A stretch of DNA of 64,000 bases from Clostridiales bacterium (GCA_003452395.1 DMOI01000041.1:8362-72361), one strand, 5' to 3'. Shown: positions 2,345 through 64,000, counted from the stretch's first letter. A program made the numbers and translations. Notes: a model not told the origin generated them from the sequence alone.

Positions 2345-2758
2345 TCATATCACTTCACTCTCTATCCAATCTATATACATACTATAAATCATGCTATTTT
2401 TATACACTTTGAGTAAATTTTCGAAACATCTTGTGCCTACTTTTTTGATAGCCCTCAATAATATAAATAATACACTATCATTAGACCACCTAATTAGACA
2501 CCTTAATATATCTCCCTTAATTTTGTATGCCCTTATTATAATCCTATATGTTATACTATTTTCAAAATATTCATTTTTCTTGTTTTCATTAAATATAAAC
2601 CCTACTACATAACTATTCTTTAACATATTAATAGCATGATCTATCATTCTTTGTGTAATTATATATATCATACTATTTTGGTAATAAATTTTTATATTGT
2701 GCATGATGATAACTAGACCTGAGTTATTAACTATATTCATGTGTTTACAACTCCCCAT
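2345..2758 (-). CDS. hypothetical protein
   Basis: 137-aa ORF ending 5 nt before the Wzy-like start. No recognisable motif and no SD before the first ATG; an internal ATG at 2740 follows GGGGAG. Confidence 0.3.
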   Translation of the reverse strand: MGSCKHMNIVNNSGLVIIMHNIKIYYQNSMIYIITQRMIDHAINMLKNSYVVGFIFNENKKNEYFENSITYRIIIRAYKIKGDILRCLIRWSNDSVLFILLRAIKKVGTRCFENLLKVYKNSMIYSMYIDWIESEVI

Positions 2759-2847
2759 TTTCGCATATGTTAATCAATTAAGCCCGCAAGGTATTAAGAT
2801 GTTCTAGAGGACAGATTACTATTTGTTATTCCAACAAATAGCAACAA

Positions 2848-3345
2848 TCATTCTTTAACTTCTATATTATATATAGTACCTGCAAACTTTATTTTTGAAG
2901 ATTTTATTACTATAGATCCGCCCGCTTGCCAATCTCTGTTTCCCAGCATAAGACCTTTTTGTTTATCAAATTGTCCCATTCCTTTAATAGTAATAGTAAC
3001 ATCTCTTCTTGTTACTACCTCTGCACTCACAACTCTACCATCATCAGTAGGTATTTCATTTTTTGTTACATCCGTTTCTACATTTGTTACTTCACCTATT
3101 TCAGCGTTTAACGCATCTTCAAAAATTATATCTTTAACTTTAACTTGTTCAGCCATTTCTGGAAGTATTGCTTTTACAAGAACTTTAATTTCATATGCCT
3201 TTTTGTCTTCTAATAAGTTTACCTTGTTCATAAAATTAATCTTCATTAGTACTACCCCACCAATAGCAACAATAAATAATATAACAAGTAAGTCTATAAT
3301 ATTTATACTACTAAACAATCTTCCTTTTTCATCAATAATTTTCAT
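2848..3345 (-). CDS. DUF4330-like membrane-anchored protein
   Basis: 165 aa. The N-terminus MKIIDEKGRLFSSINIIDLLVILFIVAIGG resembles the DUF4330 family as I recall it. Confidence 0.5.
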   Translation of the reverse strand: MKIIDEKGRLFSSINIIDLLVILFIVAIGGVVLMKINFMNKVNLLEDKKAYEIKVLVKAILPEMAEQVKVKDIIFEDALNAEIGEVTNVETDVTKNEIPTDDGRVVSAEVVTRRDVTITIKGMGQFDKQKGLMLGNRDWQAGGSIVIKSSKIKFAGTIYNIEVKE

Positions 3346-3356
3346 GTTTTTTCTCC

Positions 3357-4934
3357 TTATTTTATTATGATTTTTGTTATTTTCTTAAACAACTCTCTTG
3401 TTTGTTTTACATTTAAAATATATGTAGCTAATGAGTAAACTAAAATCCCAAAAATAGATGCTACTACAAGACTTATTAGATTATACACAAAGTTGCTGTT
3501 TATAGCAATAACTTTGTTGAAATTTGTTAATAAATAATTTACTGAAAAGTACATTATTAAACTTGCTATAAGTACCTTTATCACACTCGATGCAATCTCC
3601 ATATTATTCCACCTTCCATACTTTATTTGGAATACTACATACATAACAATTGCATTAAAGGTTATTGCTATAGATGTCGATAGTGCAAGTCCTTTCATAC
3701 CTAGTGGTCCTATTAATATAATATTTAATATAATATTTAACAAAACACTAAGTATTGCAGTAATTGTGGGGGTCTTTGTATCATTTACTGAAAAATATGT
3801 CTTACTAATTATCTCCTGAAGTGCAAAGCCCACAAGTCCTAAACTAAAAAATATAAACGCCGATTGTGTGAGGTTTGCAGAGTTTACATCAAACTTACCT
3901 CTCATAAATACCATTTCAACAAAAGGACGACTAAGAACTATAAGCCCCAACTGTGCTGGAATCATTACATAAAAAATATTATTTATTATATTTTGAGCAT
4001 CGTTTTTGAATTCCGTAAAATCCTTAGCATTATAATTATCCACTAGTTTTGGAAATAAAACTGCACTTATGCTATAAATGAGAGTTTGTGCTATTGCTGC
4101 ATACATCCCATATCCATAGTTTAATGCAGATACTCTGCCTTCTGGCAAACTAGATGCAAACCTTGAATCAATTATTGTGCTCACACTATAAATCAAAGTA
4201 GAAAATAGTATCGGCATAAATAATATAAAAAATTTTCTTATATCTTTGTCTTTTACAATTCTAAAATCAAGCGCATACTTCATTTTATCTTTTACAGTAA
4301 AAGGAATTTGAATAACTAGCTGAAATCCCCAAGCAACTAATGTTGAAACTACTAATCCATATATACCATAATCTCCAACCCAAAACATTAAATATAAAAT
4401 CAAAAACATGTTAAAAGGTACACTCATTATGGAATAGCCTATAAAACTTTCCCTTGATTGAAGGACTGCTCTTATTACATAAGCCGCAAATATGATAATA
4501 CAACTTGGAAATAATATTTTTACAAAATCTATGGTCAACCCTAATCTTTCACCTGTGAATCCTCCTGCAATTAATGATGTGTATTCTTTTGCAAAAAGCA
4601 ATACAAGTATTGAAATACCTGCCGATATTATTAAGAAAAATGTAATTACCTTATTAATAAATTTATTTGCTTTTTCATTTTCTCCATTAGAATAATACTT
4701 TGTTATTATTGGTACAACACTCACAGTTATTGCTGCACCTATGGCCATAAATATGGTTATTGTTACTCTCTGAGCCATTTGATATGCGTCTGCCTCAACG
4801 CCTGTCCCAAAGTTACTCCCTATAAGTGCTTCCCTAACAAATCCTAAGAGTTTGGTTGCAACAGTTAGTATTAGAACAATTATAACTGAATTTAAAGTGT
4901 TTTTTCTTTTATTAATATTTGTTGCATTATCCAT
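3357..4934 (-). CDS. murJ: lipid II flippase MurJ/MviN
   Basis: 525 aa, ~14 TM segments. N-terminal region LGFVREALIGSNFGTGVEADAY is typical of MurJ. Confidence 0.85.
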   Translation of the reverse strand: MDNATNINKRKNTLNSVIIVLILTVATKLLGFVREALIGSNFGTGVEADAYQMAQRVTITIFMAIGAAITVSVVPIITKYYSNGENEKANKFINKVITFFLIISAGISILVLLFAKEYTSLIAGGFTGERLGLTIDFVKILFPSCIIIFAAYVIRAVLQSRESFIGYSIMSVPFNMFLILYLMFWVGDYGIYGLVVSTLVAWGFQLVIQIPFTVKDKMKYALDFRIVKDKDIRKFFILFMPILFSTLIYSVSTIIDSRFASSLPEGRVSALNYGYGMYAAIAQTLIYSISAVLFPKLVDNYNAKDFTEFKNDAQNIINNIFYVMIPAQLGLIVLSRPFVEMVFMRGKFDVNSANLTQSAFIFFSLGLVGFALQEIISKTYFSVNDTKTPTITAILSVLLNIILNIILIGPLGMKGLALSTSIAITFNAIVMYVVFQIKYGRWNNMEIASSVIKVLIASLIMYFSVNYLLTNFNKVIAINSNFVYNLISLVVASIFGILVYSLATYILNVKQTRELFKKITKIIIK

Positions 4935-6039: not shown

Positions 6040-6546
6040 TCAATTATCTGCTTTTTTATCTATATAATATCGTCGTTCTAAAACTTTTTTTTCGCACAGC
6101 ATTTCGAATTTTCCATCATATATAATATTAAGCAGGTCACTTGCACAACTTAATGCGTATAAAAGCTGTGTTTCTGTTATAAGCCCGTTTCTTCTTGCAT
6201 CTACTAGTTCATCTAAATCAACTACTTTAATTTTCCCATCTGGGTATACCACTACATCTACAAGTAAGTCTATCTCTGTATATACCTTTTTTTCGTCGTC
6301 AACTTCCACTTGCATTATATCACAGTAATAATGGTCAAGGTCTCCCTTTTGATTATATATTTTAGCTATTTTAAATCCTCTTTTTATATATAAATATGCA
6401 ATTCCTTCTTTAATATCCTCACGTTTATGTATTGGAACCCATTTGCTAACTAGTAACTCATCATCTAAATAAAGTATTTCATCACTTGATATATCAATTA
6501 CTTCATCAGGAATATATCTTTTTCGTATTAATGTTATGTCTTGCAT
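6040..6546 (-). CDS. DUF402 domain protein
   Basis: 168 aa. HYYCDIMQVEVDD...IDLLVDVVVYPDG matches the DUF402 core pattern. Confidence 0.55.
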   Translation of the reverse strand: MQDITLIRKRYIPDEVIDISSDEILYLDDELLVSKWVPIHKREDIKEGIAYLYIKRGFKIAKIYNQKGDLDHYYCDIMQVEVDDEKKVYTEIDLLVDVVVYPDGKIKVVDLDELVDARRNGLITETQLLYALSCASDLLNIIYDGKFEMLCEKKVLERRYYIDKKADN

Positions 6547-35266: not shown

Positions 35267-35282
35267 GTTTTCACCCCCTAAT

Positions 35283-35379
35283 GAAAGTTGAAAGTTGAAA
35301 GTTGAGAGTTGAAAGTGAAGAACTAAAAATTAACTACGTAATAACTTTTCACTTTTCTTTTCAACTTTCCACTTTCAAC
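35283..35379. repeat. palindromic GTTGAAA-heptad array between the hlyD-like and ABC ATPase genes
   Basis: The left arm 35287-35321 reads GTTGAAA GTTGAAA GTTGAGA GTTGAAA GTGAAGA. The right arm 35346-35379 is the imperfect reverse complement (TTTTCAC TTTTCTT TTCAAC TTTCCAC TTTCAAC) and overlaps the hlyD stop. Confidence 0.85.
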
Positions 35380-36490
35380 TTAATATAACGTCCAACGTCA
35401 TACCTGGTCTTAGTTTTTCAATATTATCCAGTACTTCAACTTTTATCTTAAATACTGTGTTTTCTTTTGCCTCACTTGTTTCAGTATTTTTAGGTGTATA
35501 TTCAGCTTCCGATGATATATAAGTAATCTTACCTTTAATAATTTGTTTAGGATTTAGATTTGATTTTAGTGTAACTTCATCATTAACCTTAACTAATCCT
35601 AAATTTCTTTGCGTAACATAAGTTGTTATAAACATATTTGAAAGATCAGATACTGTTCCTATGTTTGTTCCCATGTTTACGATATCACCAATCTCTAGAT
35701 TTTTTTGTACCAAGGTACCTCTCACCTGAGATTTTATCTCATATCTTGAAAGCACCAATTTTGCTTGTTCGAGTAATATTTTCGATGATTCTAGTTCCGC
35801 TTCTACCATTTTTATTGCTTCTACTGTAGAACCACTTTTTAGTAATTCTAAATTTGCAACTGCTTGTTCTACCCCTGCATCAGCCACTTTTATAGTTTCC
35901 TTTGTAGGTCCATTTTTTAAAAGTTCAAGACTCGCAATTGCAGAATTATAATTACCCAAAGATGTATCAAATTTATACTTTATTTCTGCTAGCTCATCAT
36001 TTGATATTGCATTTGTTTCATGTAACTTTTTGGCTTCTTCATATTTTTCTGACAAATAATCATAACTTATTTTTGCCGTATTCACAGCTATTTGGGCCTT
36101 ATTTATCTCTTCTTGTCTTGTACCATGTTTAAGCTCATCAAGTTTAGTCCTTGCTGCTTTGACTTGTGCTTCGGCTTGCTTTATCTGTTCTTTCCTCGTA
36201 CCTGCCTTTATATCTAAGAGCTTCAGCTCCTTTAATTTGACGTTTTCCTCAGCTGATTTAACTAAAAGTTTTTGGTTCTCAGAATCTACAATTGCAACAA
36301 TCTCTCCTTCTTGTACACTGTCACCCTCTTCTTTTAGAACTTTTGTAATTTTCCCCTGAACCTCTGAATTAATATCAATTTGCACGGTCTCTATCGTCCC
36401 ACTGATATTAAACTTCTTTTCATTACAACCAGTAAAAATAAAACATTCAACTAATAAAATTATTAATATATTTACTTTAAAACAATTCAT
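35375..36490 (-). CDS. HlyD-family / periplasmic adaptor lipoprotein
   Basis: Lipobox FIFTGC, biotinyl-lipoyl-like GEIVAIVD, long coiled coil, C-terminal beta-barrel. Start set at ATG 36490 (SD GGAAGGGAG); the ORF is open to 36517. Confidence 0.8.
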   Translation of the reverse strand: MNCFKVNILIILLVECFIFTGCNEKKFNISGTIETVQIDINSEVQGKITKVLKEEGDSVQEGEIVAIVDSENQKLLVKSAEENVKLKELKLLDIKAGTRKEQIKQAEAQVKAARTKLDELKHGTRQEEINKAQIAVNTAKISYDYLSEKYEEAKKLHETNAISNDELAEIKYKFDTSLGNYNSAIASLELLKNGPTKETIKVADAGVEQAVANLELLKSGSTVEAIKMVEAELESSKILLEQAKLVLSRYEIKSQVRGTLVQKNLEIGDIVNMGTNIGTVSDLSNMFITTYVTQRNLGLVKVNDEVTLKSNLNPKQIIKGKITYISSEAEYTPKNTETSEAKENTVFKIKVEVLDNIEKLRPGMTLDVILS

Positions 36491-44974: not shown

Positions 44975-45255
44975 AAAAAGTCTATGATAGAGACACAGTA
45001 GATATTTGTGGTTACAACCCCAGAGAGTGAGTTACTCGGTGCAAAACTCACAGCACACAAACAATCGAATTACACTCAGGAGACGGGAGAAAATGAAGAA
45101 GTTGAAAGTTGAAAGTTGAAAGTTGAAAGTTAAAAGAATTACTTAACTCTCGGTCTCAACCTCAATCCCCTTAACTTAAACTTGGGTGGTACCACGGGTA
45201 AAAAACTCGTCCCATATAATACACACGTATTGTATGAGACGAGTTTTTTCAATTT
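44975..45255 (+). promoter_or_regulatory. T-box riboswitch, tyrosine specifier (UAC)
   Basis: Stem I elements (GATAGAGA, CAGTAG, CCAGAGAG...GGTGCAAA). Specifier loop GAATTACAC contains UAC followed by A. T-box AAACTTGGGTGGTACCACGG. Terminator AAAAAACTCGTC...GACGAGTTTTTT at 45200-45249. Confidence 0.85.
45101..45135 (+). repeat. GTTGAAA heptad tandem array (4 perfect + 1 degenerate unit) inside the T-box leader
   Basis: GTTGAAA x4 then GTTAAAA, read directly from the sequence. Confidence 0.9.
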
Positions 45256-55991: not shown

Positions 55992-56423
55992 TCTAGCATC
56001 TCCTTTTGTTTTAATCTAAATATCTTTTTATATATATTTATTAATACTACTTTTCTACGCTTAATACTCGTTCAATAAAACCCTAACATTTACACTTTAA
56101 TAATATACCATATTTTACAGTTTTTGTCAATATTTTGTCGATTATTATTATATTTTTTAACACTATATAATTAAATACATATCCTTTTGATACAACTTTT
56201 CTATTGCTTTATCGACCTGTTGTGTTCCTTGAATTATCTTTGGTAGTGGCGTTTCTTTTACTTCTATTAATAAGTGTATACCCTATTCATTTTAATTTCT
56301 CCTTACTTTTCTATTTTATTCTGTATTTTAATAATTCTAATCAAAGGTTTTTACCTACCGTTCGTACGAACATACACTTCGCTAGTATCACTCCTACATT
56401 TTTCATCTAGACTTTATTAACTC

Positions 56424-58514: not shown

Positions 58515-58657
58515 AACATTCGGGGTCAGGCATGAATTTTAGAGTTTCTTTTATAGGTTTCCACTACTGAAATAGCATATTCTGTTAGGTTGATGTCTCT
58601 ATTTTTAATCTTAGATACCATAGTTGCATCTATGTTTAACTTGTTACTTATACTTAT
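58515..58657. repeat. direct repeat A (fragment copy of the 3' part of the HTH gene at 63.7 kb)
   Basis: 143 nt. Differs from 63656-63797 by two substitutions and one extra T by my alignment. In this copy the indel breaks the HTH reading frame. Confidence 0.9.
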
Positions 58658-58898
58658 GCTGTATACCTTGCATTATTTTAGCTGATTTCGTTTTTACTAC
58701 CTCTATAAGCATATGTGCATGATTATCCATGATGCAGTATGCATAAAATTTAAATTCATACTTTTCTTTATAGTTTGTAATTATATCTAAGTAATGCATT
58801 TTGTCTTGCATATCCTTTAAAATATATTCTCCATTATTACCTCTAACCATTATGTGATACAATGCACCTTCGTAATGTATCCTTTGTTTTCTTGCCAC
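58644..58898 (-). pseudogene. truncated IS200/RAYT-like HUH (Y1) transposase
   Basis: 84 aa from a GTG start. ARKQRIHYEGALYHIMVRGNN...YAYCIMDNHAHMLIE carries the HUH motif (HAH). The C-terminal half with the catalytic Tyr is missing, and the ORF ends where repeat A begins. Confidence 0.7.
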
Positions 58899-59046
58899 TA
58901 TTCCTCACCCCTTGACATTACAATATCATGTGCTTGTGCAATTATCAAGATTGTTCTCTTTAAAATCCTAAAATTCATGCCTTATCCCATTTCTTTTTTC
59001 TTTATCCGCCTAATTTAAAGCCGACTTGTTTGTTTCTATAAATTAC

Positions 59047-59075
59047 TTGACATTTTATATAATACATTGTATAAT
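59047..59075 (+). promoter_or_regulatory. consensus sigma-A promoter for the histidine-phosphatase-fold gene
   Basis: TTGACA (59047-59052), exactly 17 nt, TATAAT (59070-59075). SD GGAGG lies before ATG 59125. Confidence 0.7.
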
Positions 59076-59124
59076 TATGGAAATTGTTATGATATATTCA
59101 CATACTTACTAGTGGAGGTACAAT

Positions 59125-59958
59125 ATGAAGAAAATAATTTTTTTCAGGCATGGTGAGTCTTATAAGAATGCAACTGATATAACTGGCGGAAACGGAGCAC
59201 CATTAACACCTAATGGTAAAAATCAAGTCAATGACATTTCGACTAGGTTAAATACTATACTAGAAGATAGTCAAGAAAAAATAAATATTTATATGTCATG
59301 TAATCGTGTACAAGTACAAGAAACAGCTAACATCATTAAAGAAAACCTAGGAATTACTGATCAAATTAATATGTCATCGGATTATAGACCTTGGAAATTG
59401 GGAGTGTTTGATTCACTAAGTGCAGAACTAAGAAAATCCAGATACCCTGAAGCTTATGAAAAATCAAGATTATGGTTATCTGGGAATTTAGATGTGAAAA
59501 GTGCACGAGCTCCAGGTATGGAAGATATCGTAACATATTATGATATGATTAATGGGTTTATTGAGCAATTACCTGATAATGAGATTTATATTATGGTTGG
59601 AGTTAGGTCAGACTTAGAAGCCTTTATTAATATATTTAATAACGGTTCTCCTCGCGAAGAAATGAAATATAAGCATTACGACACTACATATTGTGAAGAA
59701 ATGGTTTATGATGAGAGAAATGGTAATTATTCTTTAAATTGTGACCAGAGTTCACCAGAAATGATCCTAAAAATTGTACAAGTTACCTCTGACCAAAAAG
59801 TTTCAGAAACTATTGAAAGTATCTCATCTCCTAATCCCGATTTGGATAATAAGAATATTGATGATGATTTTTGTAATCTTCTTGCAGATGGTTGTCTCAA
59901 TGCTTCCGATAATACTTTTGAATTAGTTTCCTCTGAAGAAGACGAGAAGATTTTATAA
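59125..59958 (+). CDS. histidine phosphatase superfamily (PGM-like branch) protein, divergent, with an acidic C-terminal extension
   Basis: 277 aa. IIFFRHGESYKN carries the RHG motif. The region where the second catalytic His (SHG) is expected reads MVGVRSDLEAF. About 80 extra C-terminal residues are D/E/S-rich. Confidence 0.65.
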   Translation: MKKIIFFRHGESYKNATDITGGNGAPLTPNGKNQVNDISTRLNTILEDSQEKINIYMSCNRVQVQETANIIKENLGITDQINMSSDYRPWKLGVFDSLSAELRKSRYPEAYEKSRLWLSGNLDVKSARAPGMEDIVTYYDMINGFIEQLPDNEIYIMVGVRSDLEAFINIFNNGSPREEMKYKHYDTTYCEEMVYDERNGNYSLNCDQSSPEMILKIVQVTSDQKVSETIESISSPNPDLDNKNIDDDFCNLLADGCLNASDNTFELVSSEEDEKIL

Positions 59959-59975
59959 TACCTACGTTTTATAAA

Positions 59976-60021
59976 TTGCAAATAAGAACAGCATTATTAT
60001 ATTTGCTGTTTTTATTTGCAA
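59976..60021. terminator. bidirectional terminator between convergent genes
   Basis: TTGCAAATAAGAACAGCA-loop-TGCTGTTTTTATTTGCAA, an 18-bp stem with one mismatch. Confidence 0.8.
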
Positions 60022-60118
60022 TTTTAAATTAAATCTTCTTGTTTTTCATTATATTCTATCTCTATATTCTTAATCTCTATTTTAAATTTTTTCCATCTTA
60101 TATTTTCCTGTAGATGAA

Positions 60119-60952
60119 TCATTTATACAATAATATTGCCAATAATTGAGTAATGTTTTTCATCTTAGTTCTATTTACTTCTATATAATCTTGATGTTTA
60201 TATACCACTTGACATTCTTCTTTCTTTTCTACAAACAATTCTTCATTAATTATATTACTGCTTAAACATATTCCTTTTTCCCTTACTTTACTAATTAAAT
60301 TACAATCCTCTAAAATGTTATCAACATTACTTTCTATATGTATATTTTTTATTTTATTTAATTGCAACTTATTATAGTAATATTCTGCAACAAAGTCTCT
60401 ATACGGCAAGTCTGCTTTATTCAGCTTTAAACTTTTAAAATTTTTTATAAACTCAGAAAAATACTTTTCTCCTTCTTCACTATCTTCATGTACTATTATC
60501 TCAAATTCTATAAATTCTCCTACGTTTAAAATTGAATCAATAAGAATATTATATGTAATCTCATTTTCTGTTTTGCTATAATAATCCCTTATCTTATCTA
60601 CAACTACATATGAATGATATCCAAAAACTTTAAACAATTCAACTATGTTTTCATATGACTTTACTTCTGATATAATATTAGACTCTTTCTTTGCATAGAA
60701 ACTCGAAAATATCTCTGATTTACCTTTGTACGTTATTTCAAGTTCCTTGTCATCTATTGTCCTAATCCTCAAGCAGGTCCTATTTTTTATAAATTCGCCT
60801 GCTAAATCAGTAAAGTATTCATCCTTTTCGTTTATTCTTTTTATAAACTTAAATCCTTCTTTTTCTATTTTATTTTTTATTATCTCAGTATCACTATCAC
60901 ACAAAAACTTCTCTTCGATTTCTACAACTGTTCTATGGTCAGATTTTTTCAT
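60119..60952 (-). CDS. CYTH-domain protein (class IV adenylyl cyclase / triphosphate tunnel metalloenzyme-like) with a C-terminal extension
   Basis: VEIEEKF (ExExK), CLRIR, TYKGK and NVGEFIEFEI follow the CyaB/CYTH pattern. Start set at ATG 60952 (SD GGAGGA 8 nt upstream, 1 nt after the upstream TGA); the ORF is open to 60994. Confidence 0.75.
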   Translation of the reverse strand: MKKSDHRTVVEIEEKFLCDSDTEIIKNKIEKEGFKFIKRINEKDEYFTDLAGEFIKNRTCLRIRTIDDKELEITYKGKSEIFSSFYAKKESNIISEVKSYENIVELFKVFGYHSYVVVDKIRDYYSKTENEITYNILIDSILNVGEFIEFEIIVHEDSEEGEKYFSEFIKNFKSLKLNKADLPYRDFVAEYYYNKLQLNKIKNIHIESNVDNILEDCNLISKVREKGICLSSNIINEELFVEKKEECQVVYKHQDYIEVNRTKMKNITQLLAILLYK

Positions 60953-60953
60953 A

Positions 60954-63494
60954 TCAGCATTCCTCCAGCTCTTTAATGTTTTTATGTTCATCATAAATTT
61001 TTATGAGAATTTCAGCTAATTCATCAAAAACATCAACTTCAATACCCTCAAAACTATCTTTAGTAGCTAATGTATTTTCTAGGACACATACACATTTTAA
61101 TCCTGCTCTTTTCGCGGCTTCTATACCTCTTTTTGAATCTTCAAAAACTATACATTTTTCTTTAGAAGTTTTCATTTTATTTAAAGCTTTCAAGTAACTT
61201 TCAGCATCCGGTTTATACTTTTCCACATCGTCTCTAGAAATTATTACATCAAATACATCATCTGCATCTAATTTGTTAAGAATATTTTTTACAAACTCTT
61301 TTTTTGAAGATGTTACCAATGCTAACTCCAACCCTTTTTCTTTTAATTTCTTGATAAGCCTGATATTTTTCAAACCTTCCGTCTCGCTGGTTATCACATC
61401 TATTCTGTCTTTATATTCTTCATATACCTTATCCATCATTTCTTTTTTATCAACTTTTTCATCTATCTCTTTTCTTGCTTTTAAGTATACCATTAGTTTT
61501 TCATTGTTCTCTAACTCATATTTTATGTAATCTTCTTTCTCTATTTGAACACTATAATCCCTTCCTAAAATAAATTGCCACGATTCAAAAAATACTTTTT
61601 CTGATGGCACTATAGTCCCATCTAAATCAAATAGTATTCCATTAATATTCTTTAAATCTCCTAACTTCCCTATCTGTTTTCTTGATATAATATCTCTGTA
61701 CGGTTCACATGCAGGTATTAAGTTCAATTCTTTAAATTGAGACATAAATTCATTAAACTTATCTTCTAACTTTTGCTTATCATCAGATATAATCTCAAAT
61801 TCAACAAAACTTCCAATATTCTTTATTTCGTCAAAATAAATATTATACTCATATTCCTTTGTACTTTTAGTATAAATTATCCTTTCTTTGTTTATTTTTA
61901 CATACTTATAAAAATTCAACATTTCAAGTATCTTCTTTGTTTTCTCTAGTCCTTCTTTATTTATTGAAACGTTAAACTCTCTCTTTGAATATTGATTGCT
62001 ATAGTCTTCGGATTCTCCTTTATATGTGAGTATAAAGTCTTTTGATTCATTCTTCCTAATTCGCAAGCATGTTCTATTATCAATAAATTCTCCTTCACTA
62101 TCTGTAAAGTATAAATCCTCTTCTTTTCCCTTTGTTTTATAAATATATCCAATTTTCTTAATATACTGTAATATTTCATCTTTTAGCTTATCGTCAAGTT
62201 CGAACTTTCCTTGTTTAACAAAAACTTTATTTTCATTGTTTTTTATACTTATTTTATGCTTCTTTACGATTTCAGCAATCATATATCTTCCTTGAATATT
62301 TGTAAAATAGTTATAATTTATTTCTGCCTCATTTTCAAATAGATTATTTAATAACTCTTCAAATGCTTCTTTACTTAAATATGCTCCACCAACATCCCCA
62401 AGAAACCCCATATACCAATACTTATTTAAAACATATGGGAAGCCTCCCATAATTTTCGGATCCTCTATTTCAACGATAACTATTTTTTTAGATACTTCAA
62501 ACATTTTCCTTAACATACCTATCAGATGGTCTTTACCAGGCATATGATGAAGCGTATTACTACAATATGAAACATCAAATATGCTCTCTTTAAAAGGAAA
62601 ATAAACTGCATTATGATTTGTAAATAGTACTTTTGGGTTTTTGATTTTACTGCTTAGGATTTCTATTTGACTCCAACTTATATCATTTCCTATCACATAT
62701 TTTGTAAGATTTAAATCTGCCAATTTTGATAAAAAGGAATCTTCCCCGCATGATACATCAACTATTCTCTCAGCAGAACCTATAGCCTTATTTATAATCA
62801 TATTGAATTCATTTTTTCTTTTTCTCTTATCTGTAAGAATATACTTTTTTATTATATTGTTATGCAGCAAATACCTGCTTTTGTAGTTTTCATTAGTTGA
62901 AATTTCATCATCTTGAAAATCTGATTTTTGAGTATTTATAAATTTTTTAAATCTTTTTTCAAAAATTCTAACAACTTCTCTATTTGCAAATCTATTTATA
63001 CTTTCTAATTCTTCTTCAGTAACTTCAACAAAACTACCTGTAAAATTCCTTGTATTGATATCCTCTTTATTTCTAATTCTCGCTATAAACGCAAGCCCAT
63101 TATGTTCATATTCTTGTGAATCATAAGTGAATTTATTTTTTATATATGCAATAGGTTCTACCTCTCCTATTTTTATTTCTTTCGATATCTTCTCTGATGT
63201 TCTTTTAATTGCATTATGAATATTTTCACTCTTATATATACTTCCACCCGGAACAGACCAAAACAACTTATCTTGCATATTCTTTTCCAAATAAACTTTT
63301 CCTTCATTATCATATATAAGAAGAAGTATAAAGTATTTTCTTTGTTTTACATAATCATATAGTCTTTTAGAAACCTCTCCCTTATAAGTAATGTCATTTA
63401 AGTCATATATTTCTCTATAAACTTCAAAAGCAAACCTTGTTTCCCCTACACTTTCTTTAAATATTTTATCACACAAAATATCCACGTTTCCCAT
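60954..63494 (-). CDS. four-domain fusion: Nudix-like / class I SAM methyltransferase / CYTH / HAD-IA hydrolase
   Basis: 846 aa, with four recognisable modules. Residues ~52-178 are a Nudix fold with a degenerate box (GGSIYKSENIHNAIKRTSEKI). Residues ~225-345 are a methyltransferase (IVDVSCGEDS, GNDIS, FDVSYCSNTLHHM). Residues ~423-603 are CYTH (CLRIR, TYKGE, IGSFVEFEI) with ExExK replaced by VKQGK. Residues ~617-815 are HAD (FDLDGT, LVTSS, KPD, FEDSKRG). Confidence 0.75.
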   Translation of the reverse strand: MGNVDILCDKIFKESVGETRFAFEVYREIYDLNDITYKGEVSKRLYDYVKQRKYFILLLIYDNEGKVYLEKNMQDKLFWSVPGGSIYKSENIHNAIKRTSEKISKEIKIGEVEPIAYIKNKFTYDSQEYEHNGLAFIARIRNKEDINTRNFTGSFVEVTEEELESINRFANREVVRIFEKRFKKFINTQKSDFQDDEISTNENYKSRYLLHNNIIKKYILTDKRKRKNEFNMIINKAIGSAERIVDVSCGEDSFLSKLADLNLTKYVIGNDISWSQIEILSSKIKNPKVLFTNHNAVYFPFKESIFDVSYCSNTLHHMPGKDHLIGMLRKMFEVSKKIVIVEIEDPKIMGGFPYVLNKYWYMGFLGDVGGAYLSKEAFEELLNNLFENEAEINYNYFTNIQGRYMIAEIVKKHKISIKNNENKVFVKQGKFELDDKLKDEILQYIKKIGYIYKTKGKEEDLYFTDSEGEFIDNRTCLRIRKNESKDFILTYKGESEDYSNQYSKREFNVSINKEGLEKTKKILEMLNFYKYVKINKERIIYTKSTKEYEYNIYFDEIKNIGSFVEFEIISDDKQKLEDKFNEFMSQFKELNLIPACEPYRDIISRKQIGKLGDLKNINGILFDLDGTIVPSEKVFFESWQFILGRDYSVQIEKEDYIKYELENNEKLMVYLKARKEIDEKVDKKEMMDKVYEEYKDRIDVITSETEGLKNIRLIKKLKEKGLELALVTSSKKEFVKNILNKLDADDVFDVIISRDDVEKYKPDAESYLKALNKMKTSKEKCIVFEDSKRGIEAAKRAGLKCVCVLENTLATKDSFEGIEVDVFDELAEILIKIYDEHKNIKELEEC

Positions 63495-63638
63495 GCTTGC
63501 CTCCCCTAAAATATCACACTTAAATCATGATTAATTGAGTGTTTATTCACTTTTCATATCTTACCATATTATAATTTTTTCTGCAATAAAAAAACATAAA
63601 TTACAAGAGAAACTGAAAATTGCAAATTATATCAAATT

Positions 63639-64000
63639 TTATTTTCTTATAGAAAAACATTCGGGGTCAGGCATGAATTTTAGAATTTCTTTATAGGTTT
63701 CCACTACTGAAACAGCATATTCTGTTAGGTTGATGTCTCTATTTTTAATCTTAGATACCATAGTTGCATCTATGTTTAACTTGTTACTTATACTTATATT
63801 GTTTATTTCACAATTTGTCTCTGATAAAATAATAATAGCTTTTCTTATATCAGAAATATTTCGTTTTTTTGTCTTCTTTACTATTTCTTCAACCTCTACC
63901 ATTTCTTGTTTTGAAACCTCTTCAATTAAATCTTCTATATTTATCAGCTTTTTACTACATCTCAGTTTAAACCTTTGTGCTTCTTCTATTTTATATTCCT
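63639..64000 (-). CDS. helix-turn-helix protein (5' end may lie beyond the window)
   Basis: The track gives 87 aa from ATG 63902, but the frame is open to nt 64000 (...EYKIEEAQRFKLRCSKKLINIEDLIEEVSKQE-MVEVEE...). ISNKLNIDATMVSKIKNRD looks like an HTH. Confidence 0.5.
   Translation of the reverse strand, partial: EYKIEEAQRFKLRCSKKLINIEDLIEEVSKQEMVEVEEIVKKTKKRNISDIRKAIIILSETNCEINNISISNKLNIDATMVSKIKNRDINLTEYAVSVVETYKEILKFMPDPECFSIRK
63656..63797. repeat. direct repeat B (inside the intact HTH gene)
   Basis: 142 nt, ~98% identical to 58515-58657. Confidence 0.9.

Follow-up and report, generated by a model that had tools for sequence, protein, structure and literature searches.

A 143-bp direct repeat pair in a Clostridiales contig as the probable shared 3′ ends of two decayed TIRtron copies

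Overview of the locus

The right-hand part of a 64,000-nucleotide stretch of DNA from a Clostridiales bacterium (the window, whose coordinates are used throughout unless a contig is named) carries two direct repeats of about 143 bp, which lie on either side of a histidine-phosphatase gene, a CYTH gene and a gene encoding a NUDIX-methyltransferase-CYTH-HAD fusion protein. The best explanation of the locus as a whole, to which we assign a probability of roughly 0.85, is that a single TIRtron lineage left two pseudogenised copies here, A and B, and that the repeats correspond to the 3′ ends that these have in common. The gene of a TIRtron encodes a Y1/HUH tyrosine transposase with a DnaA_C-like helix-turn-helix. 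TIRtrons are a known class of elements in which terminal inverted repeats (TIRs) of consensus GGGGWSAS enclose a gene for a TIR-associated tyrosine transposase, or TIRYT (Di Nocera et al. 2013, PMC3733652), and TIRYTs constitute subclass 2.1.2 of TnpA_REP, whose C-terminus is Bac_DnaA_C-like (Quentin et al. 2018, PMC6006769); neither paper reports transposition, mobility or decayed copy pairs for TIRtrons. The A/B pair represents further members of this class.

The window is the reverse complement of positions 1574–65573 of contig MGOV01000020.1 (L001; GCA_001797235.1, Clostridiales bacterium GWD2_32_59), a window coordinate being 65574 minus the L001 coordinate, and the 1.5 kb past the right edge of the window was read from the same contig. 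The features of the two copies are as follows.

58515–58988, minus strand: copy A in its entirety, a 474-bp "mini-TIRtron" with an internal deletion that has kept both TIRs, recognised by the TIR pair, a Y1_Tnp match and C-terminal colinearity with relatives
58515–58657, minus strand: repeat copy A, comprising the last ~44 codons of a putative DnaA_C-like helix-turn-helix (HTH) region (ISISNKLNIDATMVSKIKNRDINLTEYAISVVETYKRNSKIHA, then the stop), the right TIR and 7 nt beyond
58522–58547, minus strand: right TIR of copy A; the plus strand reads GGGGTCAGGCATGAATTTTAGAGTTT, which fits GGGGWSAS (motif from PMC3733652)
58657/58658, minus strand: deletion junction of copy A, where 514 bp of copy B are missing and the frame is shifted
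58658–58898, minus strand: the "transposase stump", TIRYT codons 1–80 from a GTG start past the HUH motif to ...KIMQGIQ
58963–58988, minus strand: left TIR of copy A, upstream of the start codon; the gene strand reads GGGATAAGGCATGAATTTTAGGATTT, degenerate, with two mismatches in the GGGGWSAS core
63656–63797, minus strand: repeat copy B, the corresponding 3′ segment in the second TIRtron; a derived deletion of 1 nt lets its open reading frame (ORF) run through the TIR
63663–63688, minus strand: right TIR of copy B, GGGGTCAGGCATGAATTTTAGAATTT on the plus strand
63639–64000, minus strand: 3′ part of the copy B ORF, open to the window edge and continuing in the source contig to the equivalent of ~64439

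The repeat pair

The repeats at 58515–58657 and 63656–63797 are in direct orientation and identical at 140 of 143 aligned positions (BLAST E = 2e-66), the differences being two substitutions and a single-nucleotide indel within an A-run. This confirms the ~98% identity, and the nature of the differences, given in a preliminary description of this DNA. The matching positions fall into perfect blocks of 29, 4, 23 and 84 bp. Homology between A and B breaks off sharply at 58515/63656, and just 16 of the 40 bases flanking the repeats on the outside match. What survives of the element in both decayed copies is the 143-bp repeat, made up of ~44 terminal codons, the right TIR and a further 7 nt. No second repeat of this size was found in a self-BLAST of the whole window, an exact 40-nt pattern from the repeat gave 0 matches in the metagenome contig collection, and the reconstructed protein retrieved distant relatives only from the genome contig collection, of which the source MAG is not a part.

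The DNA that can be aligned between copies A and B amounts to 279 bases, with 14 differing positions (~95% identity), nearly all of which are non-synonymous or indels. These 14 differences, together with a separate large lesion in each copy, imply that the A/B duplication is not very recent; the recent event that had been read from the near identity of the 143-bp repeats was therefore overstated, the more so as each copy has been inactivated independently. The difference in identity between the two homologous segments of the copies (92% vs 98%, see below) was considered as a sign of gene conversion, however, a Fisher p value of 0.03 is too weak to claim this.

Copy A

Comparison of the A and B regions by BLAST yields two colinear segments that are contiguous in copy A and separated by 514 bp in copy B, and copy A has therefore suffered an internal 514-bp deletion. 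Segment 1 (L001 6790–6916 against 1135–1262) extends over 127 bp with 92% identity, its A side corresponding to 58658–58784 and its partner on the copy B side lying outside the window, just past the right end; segment 2 (L001 6917–7059 against 1777–1918) shows 98% identity. The length of the deletion is not divisible by three, and its two sides are imperfectly similar to each other (ATACAGCAAGTATA / AAACAATATAAGTATA). The stump ORF of 84 aa (58644–58898) matches Y1_Tnp with E = 8e-10 (39 bits against a cutoff of 23); listed in the preliminary description as a separate item between the repeats, it is the 5′ half of copy A and not cargo.

The reconstructed full-length protein (~296 aa) was aligned with its closest relatives, P0002–P0005 (61–68% identity), and in this alignment copy A retains codons 1–80 and the last ~44 codons. 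The C-terminus of copy A (...ETYKRNSKIHA, then the stop) has the length typical of the family and a terminal alanine, as in the ...QA and ...KA termini of the relatives, and the TGA stop codon at 58526–58528 lies within the TIR, inside the conserved CCTGACCC. By this comparison copy A keeps the ancestral C-terminus. The earlier view of copy A as a frame-broken fragment with a different C-terminal sequence is thus correct with respect to the frame break, which is due to the 514-bp deletion, but not with respect to the C-terminus, since the derived one is that of copy B.

Copy B

In the minus-strand frame of what appeared as an 87-aa HTH ORF there is no stop up to the window edge, and in the contig the copy B ORF amounts to 248 aa, which start with MDNHAHMLIE (containing the HAH of the HUH motif of Y1 transposases), pass the tyrosine motif KYIHYNP and end in the HTH. 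This is at variance with the previous assignment of copy B as the 3′ part of an intact HTH gene. DNA homology with copy A reaches ~55 bp upstream of the ATG of copy B, where an in-frame TAA is present, and ends at ~L001 1130–1135, which corresponds to a 5′ truncation at about codon 37–41; the left TIR is missing. At the opposite end, copy B lacks one A in the A-run and reads through the TIR, ending in ...KEILKFMPDPECFSIRK before the stop.

Upstream of the break in copy B, 300 bp differ at 25 positions between two assemblies that are otherwise identical over 13.5 kb, and this DNA behaves as a multi-copy repeat that appears to be insertion sequence (IS)-like. Beyond it follow a gene for an ExeA/TnsC-like AAA+ ATPase and then the contig end. 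Copy B is a 5′-truncated, stop-containing TIRYT pseudogene beside IS-like DNA, and the truncation may have been caused by the IS. The contig end as a whole (L001 1–1130) holds the ATPase gene, a small ORF and the ~300 bp of repeat-like DNA, and probably represents one end of a multi-copy transposon that lies against copy B.

Assignment to the TIRtron family

The TIRs that bound a TIRtron are ~26 bp long and carry GGGGTCAGGC. Both right TIRs read GGGGTCAG and the left TIR of copy A reads GGGATAAG; the two arms of copy A (58522–58547 and 58963–58988) are 26 nt long and 85% complementary, and do not fold as hairpins (z = +0.6, +1.0). The window contains three matches to the TIR sequence where 0 are expected by chance, all of them at the two relics. 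In every relative examined (L004, L005, L006/L008, L009, L010 and L020), inverted repeats with the core (G)GGGTCAGG(C) flank the gene, and the inner part of the inverted repeat varies by lineage. In one of these, L009 (a metagenome-assembled genome (MAG) of Syntrophomonas), there are four TIR copies (1206–1245, 2948–2985, 3900–3938 and 6442–6482), two of which flank the TIRYT gene, with the outer inverted pair 1.7 and 2.5 kb away; this represents either a nested arrangement or dispersed solo TIRs.

The reconstructed protein has 678 homologues, nearly all of ~290–300 aa and from Clostridia and other Bacillota, which carry PF01797 and in some cases PF08299, and which are named "transposase" or "REP element-mobilizing transposase RayT". 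The fragments of copies A and B are colinear with full-length ~290-aa homologues, and P0004, P0025, P0060 and others among the colinear relatives have precomputed PF08299 matches. A sequence search of the PDB with the TIRYT gave no match at E ≤ 0.01.

The same genome (GWD2_32_59) encodes two diverged intact paralogues, P0008 on MGOV01000065 and P0015, and the window contains one more relic of the family:

56214–56279, minus strand: third TIRYT relic, 66 bp (IHLLIEVKETPLPKIIQGTQQV), codons ~61–82, of another, P0012-like lineage

This relic is 82% identical to P0012 and is matched by 106 of 119 family members. The preliminary description named a multi-copy element unrelated to the locus as a finding that would count against its reading. 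At the family level the repeat is indeed the end of a mobile element with further members, as seen from the paralogues P0008 and P0015 and the third relic; no further copy of the repeat itself occurs within the window. The relic lies between a gene for a 173-aa protein and an SLH-cohesin gene, and all three TIRtron relics fall within a span of 8 kb and on one strand.

DNA between the copies

The DNA separating the two copies consists of two parts with different distributions.

59125–59958, plus strand: histidine-phosphatase gene, between the copies and outside the segment common to another genome
59984–63598, minus strand: shared module, with the CYTH gene (60119–60952) and the NUDIX-methyltransferase-CYTH-HAD fusion gene (60954–63494)

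An orthologue of the fusion protein (846 aa), 92% identical, is encoded by Clostridiales bacterium GWD2_32_19, a MAG that stems from the groundwater metagenome which also yielded the genome of the window. At the DNA level, identity between the two genomes (shared segment at L020 9899–13733) is 89.7% over 60088–63598 and 79% over 59984–60089, and then stops. The context in GWD2_32_19 is unrelated, and lacks both the histidine-phosphatase gene and a TIRtron of the A/B lineage. The module has a GC content of ~27%, compared with 30–33% in the flanks. No close relative of the host genome was found in the databases searched, where the closest non-self LysS has 68% amino-acid identity. Because DNA identity of the module is ~90% although no LysS in the database is closer than 68% at the amino-acid level, and because of the lower GC of the module, we infer that the fusion and CYTH genes were exchanged horizontally on their own, probably recently, between co-resident organisms. 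Between the module and repeat B lie 57 bp, and between the module and repeat A 1.3 kb; hence the repeats do not delimit it.

These data bear on the proposal in the preliminary description that a 5-kb cassette was inserted into, or duplicated with, a single small HTH gene, such that the repeats would be a target or gene duplication. The direct orientation and 98% identity of repeats placed on either side of accessory genes would agree with it, as would the occurrence of the fusion and CYTH module in a different context in another genome. However, there is no small HTH gene at the locus, both copies being derived from TIRYT genes of ~296 codons, and the copies are not complementary halves, but overlap in two separate segments (127 and 143 bp) and have their own lesions each. 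Furthermore, the stump belongs to copy A, and the module boundaries do not coincide with the repeats. We consider this account highly improbable.

A PADLOC analysis of the three cassette proteins returned no defence-system match, and near the repeats there was no Rfam RNA family and no tRNA detected by ARAGORN. Homologues of the fusion protein with 830–850 aa occur in Patescibacteria, Bacteroidota and Lachnospiraceae at ~40–44% identity. In GWD2_32_19 the module is bracketed by patchy direct duplications (96–97%) of AAA_14, EamA and polysaccharide-deacetylase genes; the duplicate pair around the module comprises L020 8536–9537 and 15208–17214, of which the upstream copy has lost two internal stretches, and several further short-range duplications of ~97% lie within the same 22 kb. 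The intact paralogue P0008 (L008/L006, MGOV01000065) is followed by small His_Phos_1 and NUDIX genes, domain types that resemble those of the cassette. A duplicated unit of TIRtron plus cargo was therefore considered at this site and rejected, as the His_Phos and NUDIX proteins have no BLASTP match to the cassette below E = 0.06, and their position beside P0008 is probably a coincidence. Elsewhere in the window, a short repeat of ~40 nt (90–94%) is present at 35280–35381 and 45092–45136, the copy at 35285–35381 being itself an imperfect palindrome; it is probably terminator-like or a small intergenic repeat.

Similar pairs in relatives

Relatives often present a comparable picture, with copies or relics of one TIRtron lineage that point in the same direction and are separated by distances between a few hundred bp and a few kb.

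L146: P0011 and a 409-bp mini-element with both TIRs; 95% and 89% identity; 2.7 kb between them, including a DUF262-like gene
L095: two decayed copies; 444 bp, 96% identity; 3.4 kb apart
L029/L138: P0004 and a copy of its left end; 135 bp, 97.8% identity; the pair brackets AAA_15/21 and RloB genes
L005/L116: P0005 and a copy of its 3′ end; 136 bp, 96.3% identity; 290 bp downstream
L041: P0010 and a 3′-end fragment; 80% identity; 1.7 kb apart
L103: P0016 and a 3′-end fragment; 89 bp, 91% identity; 1.6 kb away, upstream of the gene

The recurrence of such pairs is relevant to the question of whether transposition was involved at all. A local tandem duplication of a TIRtron and the DNA downstream of it, followed by deletions, could also leave two copies in the same orientation, and the 96–97% repeats of ordinary genes around the module in GWD2_32_19, patchy and with one copy internally deleted, show that the neighbourhood of this module does undergo duplication with subsequent deletion. 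The A/B pair, however, ceases to be homologous 7 nt past the TIR, where an element would naturally end, and there is no trace of the cassette genes downstream of copy A. Moreover, same-lineage copies form pairs at no fewer than six unrelated loci, and the genes enclosed differ among these, which points to a property of the element. Tandem duplication in place of transposition is, in our judgement, unlikely.

Alternatively, the TIRtron copies could act, or have acted, as the ends of a composite mobile unit with the intervening genes as cargo. The accessory or defence-like genes found between TIRtron copies or fragments are in line with such a role, examples being AAA_15/21 and RloB in L029, a gene of DUF262-like type in L146 and, separating the N- and C-terminal halves of one TIRtron, a radical-SAM-like gene in L116, and so is the GC content of the cassette, which is below that of the flanks. 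On the other hand, both copies in the window are dead, and the module in GWD2_32_19 is accompanied neither by a flanking TIRtron of the A/B lineage nor by the histidine phosphatase, the shared DNA being 59984–63598 only; to our knowledge, Y1 elements such as IS200/IS605 do not form composite transposons. A composite unit therefore appears very unlikely, and two separately decaying TIRtron copies remain the preferred explanation of the repeats.

The surroundings of TIRtrons in these genomes show further features. In L116 (GWD2_32_19), a P0008-type TIRtron at 2358–4486 has codons 82–238 apparently replaced by 1.8 kb encoding a radical-SAM-like protein of 374 aa and a second protein of 125 aa, which are placed between the left TIR with the N-terminal fragment and the C-terminal fragment. 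Intact TIRYT genes adjoin defence-like genes in L004/L029, L005 and L146 (AAA_15/21 with RloB, AAA_15/21 with DUF4435, which is PARIS-like, KAP NTPase, and DUF262/GmrSD-like), and this suggests that TIRtrons reside in variable or defence islands.

Clustering of breakpoints

Three independent relics end within 5 nt of one another: copy A at 58657/58658, the third relic of the window at ~56214, and the relic at L005 5616, which equals L116 2598. The shared break is at codons 80–82 (...ATGCAAGGNATACARC/AAGTATATAC, the slash marking the break), and the motif across the three relics reads ATACARC/AAGTATATAC. Copy B, at this site, has a small hairpin in single-stranded DNA (−4.9 kcal/mol, z = −3.3) with the break in the loop. 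Breaks at codons 80–82 make up 3 of ~7 relic breakpoints so far, which is a small sample. L095/L114 was considered as a fourth break at codon 81 and dismissed, as there is a 1-nt frameshift at this position and the real break is near codon 100. The 5′ edges of two 3′-end fragments are 8 nt apart in the alignment, and 3′-end fragments tend to start near codons ~237–254. There are hints here of site-preferential breakage, with Y1 cleavage at pseudo-sites or palindrome-stimulated slippage as conceivable causes.

Origin of the pair

In the sequence of events that we propose, the element would have been duplicated as a TIR-bounded unit, probably by transposition, as A and B are homologous up to 7 nt beyond the right TIR and unrelated from there on. 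The second copy would have landed ~5 kb away in the same orientation, in the manner of Y1 'peel-and-paste' elements that enter the lagging-strand template. Both copies would then have decayed, copy A by the 514-bp loss, and copy B by loss of its 5′ part, a stop and the 1-nt deletion. The genes between the copies would not form a repeat-delimited cassette, and the fusion and CYTH pair would have moved separately.

RecA-dependent loop-out of 5.1 kb through the 84-bp perfect block is possible. Contigs with the flanking SLH-cohesin gene or the 248-aa ORF were compared for arrangement, and all long contigs, from NCBI and JGI, show the identical arrangement over 13.5 kb, while short unitigs break at the 84-bp block, with L003 and L025 starting 30 nt inside it. 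That unitigs break exactly there, and that the window stems from a MAG contig, could be taken to mean that the repeat is an assembly artefact, either a chimeric join or a collapsed strain variant. The agreement among several long contigs from both sources argues against this, as do the fixed positions at which the copies differ and their different lesions, and an artefact is so improbable as to be almost negligible.

Several observations weigh against a TIRtron origin of both copies or against their transposition. At the protein level, the C-terminus scores below the gathering threshold of Bac_DnaA_C (E = 7.5e-5, 23.1 bits against 31.5), and the only NCBIfam match, REP_Tyr_transpos, is likewise under its cutoff (67 bits against 80). 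At the DNA level, two positions in the left TIR of copy A do not fit GGGGWSAS, and only one boundary of the element is available for an A/B comparison, as the left end of copy B is gone; the sequence is moreover that of a metagenome-assembled contig. An intact copy of the A/B lineage was not found in a collection of 5.8 billion proteins, where the best full-length protein has 68% amino-acid identity, so that there is no evident source of transposase. We know of no demonstration of transposition for any TIRtron, and the choice between transposition and local duplication with deletion would be decided only by where homology ends.

Discussion

The present analysis corrects the annotation of the window, in that it contains neither a split regulator gene nor a repeat-delimited cassette. 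The 84-aa "transposase", the 87-aa "HTH" and the 248-aa ORF are relabelled as two pseudogenised copies of one element, and the accessory genes separate into a module that is also present in another genome and a resident histidine-phosphatase gene. TIRtrons are a barely studied class, and diverged pairs with homology that ends at the TIR, recurring in relatives, provide modest circumstantial evidence for TIRtron movement and for mini-derivatives. A wider proposal, which we advance tentatively and regard as rather doubtful, is that TIRtrons of this Clostridia clade are mobile now or were so recently, with local hops in fixed orientation, TIR-bounded mini-derivatives and direct-repeat brackets around accessory or defence-like genes, and with site-preferential breakage too. 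If mobility and cleavage are read correctly, the A/B pair would be natural evidence for a mobility and a cleavage specificity of TIRYTs that have never been demonstrated.

Among known systems, copies A and B are most usefully set beside the TIRtrons/TIRYTs themselves, with which they share a Y1/HUH domain that has the HUH motif as well as the tyrosine of YxHxNP, an extended C-terminus that probably contains a Bac_DnaA_C-like HTH, non-hairpin TIRs with GGGGWSAS flanking the gene (here GGGGTCAG), and a 3′ TIR that overlaps the stop codon. They differ in that both copies are pseudogenes, 5 kb apart, and that the left TIR core is degenerate.

REPtrons/RAYTs, e.g., E. coli TnpA_REP, have a homologous Y1 domain and a gene bracketed by a short inverted sequence as well. 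In contrast to these, the repeats in the window have no hairpin and no GTAG tag and are not dispersed (three in 64 kb, all at relics), and the protein is twice as long and carries an HTH.

The IS200/IS605 elements (IS608, ISDra2) use a transposase of the same superfamily, and copies in the same orientation fit their strand-specific single-strand transposition. However, these elements have subterminal hairpins and no TIRs, and their TnpA is of ~130–150 aa without an HTH, whereas the elements in the window have TIRs and a ~296-aa protein with an HTH, and no tnpB. Finally, copy A (474 bp) resembles derivatives of the miniature inverted-repeat transposable element type in that both TIRs are still there while the central part of the transposase gene is gone, with a 409-bp analogue beside P0011 in L146, but differs from these in showing no sign of amplification, being the single such copy in the window, and in its degenerate left TIR.

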